Positions 21,724-22,510 of a stretch of 64,000 nucleotides of DNA are shown here, piece by piece (positions within the stretch are counted from its first letter, which is position 1; each line of letters opens with the position of its first letter). Position numbers and translations under genes: made by a program. The DNA is from a virus, in the UHGV virus genome UHGV-0086135; one strand, written 5' to 3'. A model generated the notes under the pieces. That model did not search any database. It was given only the letters and a program-made list of their open reading frames with translations, and was not told where the DNA came from.

Positions 21724-22307
21724 TGATTAAATTGGTATTCGCTTATTCTCCAACTAAAACGGTCGAAGGCTTTAATGAATTAGCATTCGGTTTAGGTGAT
21801 GGTTTACCGTGGGGACGAGTTAAAAAGGACCTCCAGAATTTTAAAGCTCGTACTGAAGGTACAATTATGATTATGGGTGCTAAAACGTTCCAGTCATTGC
21901 CTACATTACTTCCTGGTCGTAGTCATGTGGTGGTATGTGATATTAAACGTGGCTATCCTGAAACTAAAGATGGCGATTTGGCTCATTTTTATATTACCTG
22001 GGATGAGTATGTTACCTTATTAGCTGGTGGACGTATCCAATTATCCAGTCCTAACACAAATTTTAAAACGTTTATCGATGACAACGAAAATCGCATCAGT
22101 GTAATTGGCGGTCCTGCTCTGTTATATGCTGCATTACCTTATGCAGATGAAGTAGTTGTTTCTCGTATCGTTAAAAGGCATCGTGTTAATTCAACGGTTC
22201 AATTAGATGCAAGTTTTCTTGATGATATAAGCAAACGTGAAATGGTTGAAAGTCATTGGTATAAAATAGATGAAGTAACAACCCTTACGGAATCAGTATA
22301 TAAATGA
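21723..22307 (+). CDS. frd: dihydrofolate reductase (194 aa)
   Basis: Sequence [44 protein letters not shown]... matches recalled T4 DHFR. Confidence 0.95.
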
Positions 22308-22510
22308 GCAATAAATTAAAAGTTAAGGATGTTCCTAATGCTATGGCCCTTTTTATTTGCCGGCAGATGCATCAAGGGCGTATGACACCAAAACAGTATC
22401 TTAAAGGTGAGCGTTCTTTAGGATTTACTCGCAAAGCAAAACAAATGGTTAAATTAGGATATAAGCCTAACTTTGCCAAATATCCTTCTGCATATTCTTG
22501 GATGAACTAA
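22304..22510 (+). CDS. small basic protein (68 aa) between frd and td, hypothetical
   Basis: ORF track; ATG overlaps frd stop (ATGA) and stop overlaps td ATG (TAATG). Confidence 0.5.

Follow-up and report, generated by a model that had tools for sequence, protein, structure and literature searches.

A short basic gene of family PHROG 9550 at the variable frd-td junction of T-even phages

Small genes in nucleotide-metabolism operons of T-even phages

The seg and mob genes usually reside in intergenic positions between conserved T4 genes (PMC2988022). Homing endonuclease cassettes of T-even phages, such as mobE between nrdA and nrdB, are polymorphic at a conserved nucleotide-metabolism junction, are co-transcribed and spread laterally with a short flanking tract (PMC2790892, PMC2988022). 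T4 also carries frd.1 (DUF5417), frd.2, nrdA.1 (DUF4326) and nrdA.2 (DUF5496), which are short, tightly packed, often overlapping and variable between T4 relatives. T6 carries td.1 (ABI48938.1, PHROG 1928), a small gene between frd and td that is present in some Tequatrovirus phages and absent from others. The protein family PHROG 9550 includes gp245 of phage pSs-1 and A0A5P8PK61 of Klebsiella phage AmPh_EK29.

The DNA analyzed here, which we call the window, is a 64,000-nt stretch of virus genome UHGV-0086135. Between frd and td it contains an open reading frame (ORF) for a basic protein of 68 amino acids (22304..22510, + strand; ORF list, tblastn and profile match). This ORF resembles the homing endonuclease cassettes in being polymorphic at such a junction, co-transcribed and laterally spread with a short flanking tract; unlike them, its protein is too small, has no nuclease domain and shows no evident drive, and for want of a drive mechanism we attribute its spread to ordinary recombination. 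Like frd.1, frd.2, nrdA.1 and nrdA.2, it is short, tightly packed and overlapping, lies in the same transcription units and varies between T4 relatives, but it belongs to another family, matches no Pfam model and is missing from T4. With td.1 it shares the frd-td site, the orientation, a small size and presence/absence among Tequatrovirus phages. By contrast, td.1 is unrelated in sequence, encodes about 115-117 amino acids and is separated from td by a spacer of ~40 nt, with no overlap. The two genes exclude each other in our Tequatrovirus sample, yet Marfavirus, Kanagawavirus and Serratia phage 4S have both; local BLAST of the 68-aa protein against the td.1-like proteins of CIP9, KpNIH6 and 4S gave no match, and the PHROGs differ. 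From PHROG 9550 the ORF does not differ, being a member of that family.

The original prediction started from a direct overlap of frd and td in T4 and read the ORF as a small gene gained at a conserved junction, possibly an RNA- or DNA-binding modulator or the remnant of a mobile element. This picture of T4 was accurate: in T4 (NC_000866.4), frd occupies 145109-145690 and td ends at 145112, a direct 4-nt overlap with nothing between. The same ORF was sought in T4 itself and is absent, and alignment of window, T4 and pSs-1 DNA revealed a clean 206-nt indel separating T4 from the window. The reading built on this comparison was partly supported, as the following sections show.

The reading frame, its junctions and its family

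All three genes lie on the + strand and were located from the ORF list and the sequence. The stop codon of frd (dihydrofolate reductase, 194 aa, 21723..22307) is a TGA at 22305-22307 that overlaps the ATG of the 68-aa ORF at 22304-22306, giving ATGA at 22304..22307. The ORF ends in TAA at 22508-22510, and the last A of this codon is the first A of the td ATG at 22510-22512, giving TAATG at 22508..22512. The td gene (thymidylate synthase, 286 aa, 861 nt, 22510..23370) is intronless. The sequence thus carries the link at each end that had been predicted, ATGA with frd and TAATG with td, as putative coupling sites. In all five genera examined, the ORF stop still overlaps the td start, as TAATG, TGATG or GTGA: PhiKpNIH-6 has TGATG, CIP9 has GTGA, 4S has TAATG, and JS98 also has an overlap. 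An overlapping start and stop, conserved in orthologues, is the arrangement expected of translational coupling, and the ORF is therefore predicted to be coupled to its neighbors.

The ORF's ATG is preceded by 25 nt that match the region before the td ATG in T4 (DNA alignment), which places the ORF in the sequence context from which T4 initiates td. Within the ORF we found no sigma-70-like promoter or terminator; the ORF region had no Rfam match, and RNA folding revealed no excess of structure (z-score +0.51). The ORF is part of the frd-td-nrdA operon and carries no such elements itself.

The product is rich in Lys and Arg, as predicted from exactly this reading frame, with 14 K+R against 2 D+E, a pI of 10.39 and a net charge of about +12. 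Profile searching, which had been proposed as a check, placed it in PHROG 9550 over its full length (hmmscan, E=1.6e-44, 151 bits, residues 1-68 against profile positions 1-68 of 68). A tblastn search with the protein matched 238 phage records, in which the product is mostly labeled hypothetical protein. One protein identical to it (P0001) is already in public collections, and gp245 of Shigella phage pSs-1 (YP_009111049.1), likewise labeled hypothetical protein, is a 97% identical orthologue in the same position. An exhaustive HMM search of 1.84 billion representatives returned 11 clusters, among which one long hit (1402 aa, matching in six short stretches) was judged spurious. A profile search of 5.8 billion proteins returned 47 clusters of small single-domain proteins (42-125 aa), among which we saw no domain fusion and no longer, nuclease-bearing homologue. 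Literature searches on td.1, on the accessions of the ORF and on PHROG 9550 found nothing. The gene is thus already catalogued, in PHROG 9550 and in >200 phage genomes, and functionally uncharacterized.

Comparison of orthologues carries the case for a coding gene. Against the copies in PhiKpNIH-6 (Klebsiella), CIP9 (Enterobacter) and 4S (Serratia), dN/dS was 0.08-0.27; for the same pairs, pS was 0.50-0.74, with synonymous sites near saturation, and pN was 0.14-0.25. In four genera, the frame of the 68-aa ORF is the only one open at the locus. The low dN/dS together with the single open frame indicates more than a chance open frame. Family proteins have a uniform length of about 68-77 aa, and an alignment of 18 sequences contains 19 invariant residues. 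Two motifs of PHROG 9550 are present in the 68-aa protein: N-terminal M-x-N-K-x-K-V-x-x-V-P, which reads M-(S/KG)-N-K-x-K-V-x-x-V-P in an alignment of 31 sequences, and G-F-x(3)-A-x-x-M-x-x-L-G-Y-x-P. In the 31-sequence alignment both persist down to 30-45% identity in unrelated phages; M1, G40, M48 and G52 are invariant, and K4, K6, V7, P11, R20, K34, F41, L51, Y53 and P55 are conserved in at least 90% of sequences. Comparative evidence of this kind argues that the ORF is a genuine protein-coding gene of a narrow, phage-only family.

The reference annotations of JS98 (NC_010105.1, ORF at 3001-3207) and JS10 omit the ORF, so that 203 nt between frd and td appear empty; the JS98 copy is intact and encodes a protein 97% identical to that of the window.

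Structure prediction with AlphaFold2 depended on the depth of the alignment: 14 close sequences gave a pLDDT of 55, which the 31-sequence alignment raised to 82.6, with a pTM of 0.60. The model has three short helices (residues 13-24, 29-39 and 43-49), onto which the extended termini pack. In Foldseek searches it had no credible match in the PDB (best E 8.9) and matched only its own family in BFVD. The best hit of a PDB sequence-profile search (E=2.1) was judged spurious. Pfam contained no family matching the window protein at E<=1, and at E<=10 the 31 family members yielded no functional lead, none of them matching a GIY-YIG, HNH, NUMOD or HTH domain; an NCBIfam search had no match. We considered a helix-turn-helix/excisionase-like or homeodomain-like DNA-binding domain and set it aside, as neither profiles nor structures matched significantly. 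DUF4858, a label given to the ORF in vB_EcoM_Shinka, was absent from the Pfam hits of the 31 members at E<=10.

Alleles of the junction and exchange between genera

We surveyed the frd-td junction with probes from T4. A 60-nt probe across the direct junction matched 32 records, comprising T4 and its closest relatives, a count that is a lower bound since megablast needs an exact word of 28 nt. In RB69 (Mosigvirus), frd and td likewise overlap directly by ATGA. In Aplg8 (NC_054902.1), 411 nt separate frd from td and encode a 117-aa protein unrelated to the 68-aa ORF; the T6 record AY262134.2 calls this gene td.1 (PHROG 1928), and it occurs at >90% identity in 363 records. With a 400-nt T4 probe centered on the junction and reaching 200 nt to either side, we retrieved 515 records and called alleles in an evenly spaced sample of 60 rows. 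Among the 57 informative, Tequatrovirus-like rows, 39 (~68%) had td.1, 13 (~23%) the 68-aa ORF and 5 (~9%) the direct junction, proportions that are rough as database records include duplicates; no row had td.1 and the 68-aa ORF together. The frd-td junction is therefore a polymorphic cassette site with three alleles in Tequatrovirus, and T4 belongs to a minority class. The notion of a conserved junction arose from taking T4 as reference and is contradicted by these counts (td.1 in 39/57, the ORF in 13/57, direct overlap in 5/57). T4 is atypical here, and differences from it at frd-td are no sign of novelty.

The Aplg8 td.1 (2553-2906) is left unannotated in its RefSeq record. Its cassette lies between 14-nt direct repeats (AAATGAAAYAATAC) at 2527-2540 and 2942-2955, and the left copy retains the first two codons of td followed by a stop (ATGAAATAA). 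The repeats suggest either insertion into a T4-like direct junction or deletion back to one. Junction allele and td intron are not linked: T4 td has a group I intron with I-TevI, unlike the intronless td of the window, and G3F6 and PYps14T, which have the same 68-aa ORF as the window, have an intron with endonuclease.

In several other Tevenvirinae, the ORF keeps company with td. Between frd and td, PhiKpNIH-6 (Marfavirus), CIP9 (Kanagawavirus) and Serratia phage 4S have first one or two td.1-like ORFs and then the 68-aa ORF next to td, and in every Dhakavirus-like record listed the 68-aa ORF sits alone, directly between frd and td. Nucleotide identity of these distant genera to the window is 72-79% for the ORF and 69-74% for td, a similarity of divergence that fits vertical descent and implies an old pairing. 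Parsimony accordingly favors a pairing of the gene with td that is ancestral in Tevenvirinae, and the direct overlap in T4 and RB69 would most simply be a loss. Such a loss could, for instance, have come about through the two copies of AATGA that flank the ORF (22303..22307 and 22509..22513, + strand, 206 nt apart; sequence and T4 alignment), since removal of the DNA between them would yield the exact T4 junction (TATAAATGAAACAA). The 14-nt repeats around td.1 in Aplg8 are likewise compatible with a loss in T4.

The copy in the window has a more recent history. A patch of 255 nt (22302..22556, + strand, by alignment) is 98% identical to Dhakavirus JS98, with 5 mismatches. The last mismatch on its left is at 22301, and the usual divergence resumes after 22556. 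The patch consists of the 68-aa ORF and td nt 1-47; from about 22557, td is T4-like. By gene, nucleotide identity between window and JS98 is 98.1% for the ORF, 86.7% for frd and 77.1% for td; beside the patch it is ~80% in the 3' sequence of frd and ~77% in td nt 48-540, and there the window resembles T4, not JS98. Segment matrices of ten phages agreed with this. The ORF is 96-100% identical across Tequatrovirus and Dhakavirus. In the first 47 nt of td, ORF-bearing members of the two genera share 96-100% identity with one another but 85% with T4 and Aplg8. Across td nt 48-540, identity is 93-98% inside Tequatrovirus and about 76% when that genus is compared with Dhakavirus. When the whole window was compared with 50 kb of JS98 (blastn), 33.9 kb aligned at a mean identity of 73.8%, and the patch was one of only three blocks of at least 96% identity (200-nt windows).

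These alignments indicate that Dhakavirus-like and Tequatrovirus phages recently exchanged the 68-aa ORF together with td nt 1-47. As a minority allele in Tequatrovirus that seems to be fixed in Dhakavirus, the ORF is by parsimony more likely to have passed from Dhakavirus to Tequatrovirus. The exchange probably proceeded by homologous recombination in short conserved flanks. The predicted gene gain thus holds for the lineage of the window within Tequatrovirus, where the 255-nt patch between T4-like flanks has the signature of lateral acquisition, but not for the gene as such, which is old, adjoins td in Marfavirus, Kanagawavirus, 4S and the listed Dhakavirus, and has diverged about as much as td. 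Co-conversion tracts of I-TevI reach up to 2 kb (PMC2790892). We rejected hitch-hiking on I-TevI co-conversion, as the patch stops at td nt 47 and td nt 48-540, which are closer to the I-TevI site, were not converted.

The frd gene is itself mosaic. Alignment columns 181-420 (window 21903-22142) are 87-95% identical to JS98 and 58-86% identical to T4, and the ends of frd are T4-like, so that the JS98-like center forms a second recombination patch beside the ORF cassette. With frd also mosaic, ordinary recombinational mosaicism suffices to account for the spread of the ORF, and no drive mechanism is needed.

The other two blocks of high identity to JS98 lie far from frd. One (35461-35700) is a GC-rich block without ORFs, 3' of rIII (35174..35422), with 98.5% identity against a background of 73.8%; it had no Rfam or tRNA match, and its + strand had a fold z-score of -1.41. 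This block is mosaic as well: its first ~110 nt occur also in T4 records, and T4-like phages of Klebsiella and Enterobacter share nt ~35560-35700 at 92-95% identity. The block may represent a conserved non-coding element that annotations have missed. The other (63091-63330) covers the 5' end of a 269-aa ORF (62430..63239, - strand) and the 3' end of a 212-aa ORF (63270..63908, - strand), which we take from position and the JS98 map to be scaffold (gene 22) and prohead protease (gene 21), respectively.

Proposed role and alternatives

We read the ORF as a real PHROG 9550 gene for a dispensable, translationally coupled accessory protein that acts autonomously and probably binds a polyanion, and give this reading as a whole a probability of roughly 0.75. 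The ORF would most likely be translated by termination-reinitiation at the frd stop, with ribosomes passed on to td. Its product would be a non-essential accessory protein of an early/middle nucleotide-metabolism operon; dispensability is indicated by T4, T6 and RB69, which do without the gene. The protein would bind a polyanionic target, for example nucleic acid, as judged from its net charge of +12 alone, and would have a function of the host-interaction or takeover type.

Relatives outside Tevenvirinae bear on whether this function concerns thymidylate synthase. They occur in phAPEC8-like Phapecoctavirus (43% identity) and in several metagenomic phages, in dense co-directional arrays of small unannotated ORFs, some of them near a PIF1-like helicase, RNA ligase or Tad2-like gene. 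We saw no thymidylate synthase near these homologues, which argues against a td-specific role, and the protein is unlikely to be devoted to thymidylate synthase as its subunit or regulator. Nevertheless, the strict position and the stop/start overlap with td in five genera mean that a functional link to td could exist after all. That the pairing is functional, with the protein a stoichiometric partner or a regulator of Td or its mRNA or else a counter-defense or takeover factor, and that a benefit in particular hosts drove the recent sweep of the 255-nt cassette through T-even genera, is a tentative idea with odds clearly against it; were it true, the frd-td junction would be an exchangeable accessory slot.

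Several alternatives make different use of the same observations. The ORF could be a recent gain at a conserved junction whose product modulates Td, Frd or their mRNA as an RNA- or DNA-binding regulator or partner. Its absence from T4 and RB69, its basic product, the laterally acquired patch in the Tequatrovirus lineage of the window and its constant place directly 5' of td, with overlap, in five genera of Tevenvirinae, including those in which other ORFs separate it from frd, all fit such a regulator. But the junction is variable, with td.1 in ~68% of sampled Tequatrovirus-like records, the gene is as diverged as td in other genera and therefore old, T4, T6 and RB69 dispense with it, and the Phapecoctavirus and metagenomic-phage members lie away from any thymidylate synthase; we consider this explanation quite improbable. 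A factor for counter-defense or host takeover, inhibiting a host defense or enzyme, with polymorphism and spread reflecting host-specific selection, is unlikely too, if slightly less so. The polymorphism at the junction, near-identical copies across genera that are consistent with a recent sweep, and relatives in early-type arrays of small ORFs with Tad2-like and other accessory genes speak for it. However, four diverse members searched at E<=1 against the PADLOC profiles (PADLOC-DB) matched no defense or anti-defense model, the neighborhood evidence is weak, and mosaicism is common in the region anyway, frd included.

Two further explanations we regard as very improbable. A degraded free-standing homing endonuclease gene, or its DNA-binding domain, would suit an intergenic position typical of seg and mob genes (PMC2988022) and an indel relative to T4 that is clean and polymorphic. 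The family, however, shows uniform length (~68-77 aa) and purifying selection, unlike a decaying fragment; its 31 members have no GIY-YIG, HNH, NUMOD or HTH domain at E<=10, the scores of I-TevI, MobE and I-TevIII against the 68-aa protein are about 0-1 bit, no repeats, inverted or direct, exceed the 5-nt microhomology, and the 47 clusters hold no longer nuclease-bearing homologue. The predicted mobile-element remnant thus found no trace in domains, in similarity to these endonucleases or in terminal repeats. The other explanation denies the protein a function, treating the ORF as a chance frame or as a spacer that couples td translation or carries a DNA or RNA signal. The protein is known from sequence alone and is left out of the JS98 and JS10 annotations, as would suit such a frame, but dN/dS lies well below 1 with synonymous sites near saturation, amino-acid motifs survive in unrelated phages at 30-45% identity, AlphaFold gave a confident, covariation-driven model, and there is no RNA structure signal. 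An autonomous accessory protein, dispensable and translationally coupled, accommodates these observations best in our view.

The direct consequence of these results is small, since >200 deposited phage genomes already list the gene as a hypothetical protein and a PHROG exists for it. The locus is of wider use: frd-td is a compact accessory slot with three alleles, mapped recombination boundaries and exchange across genera, and can serve for studying the shuffling of small genes in T-even phages. For annotation, the JS98 and JS10 references miss a gene under clear purifying selection. Should the protein prove to be a partner of thymidylate synthase or a counter-defense factor, it would be a small new player in a classic system.

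The operon varies upstream of frd as well. Between frd.1 (20881..21123, DUF5417) and frd, the window has two extra ORFs, at 21134-21469 and 21478-21723, encoding a 111-aa DUF7247/phrog_3566 protein and an 81-aa phrog_3183 protein; T4 has a 72-nt gap in this interval, and pSs-1 has only the 81-aa ORF. The frd.1-frd interval is another variable slot in the same operon.
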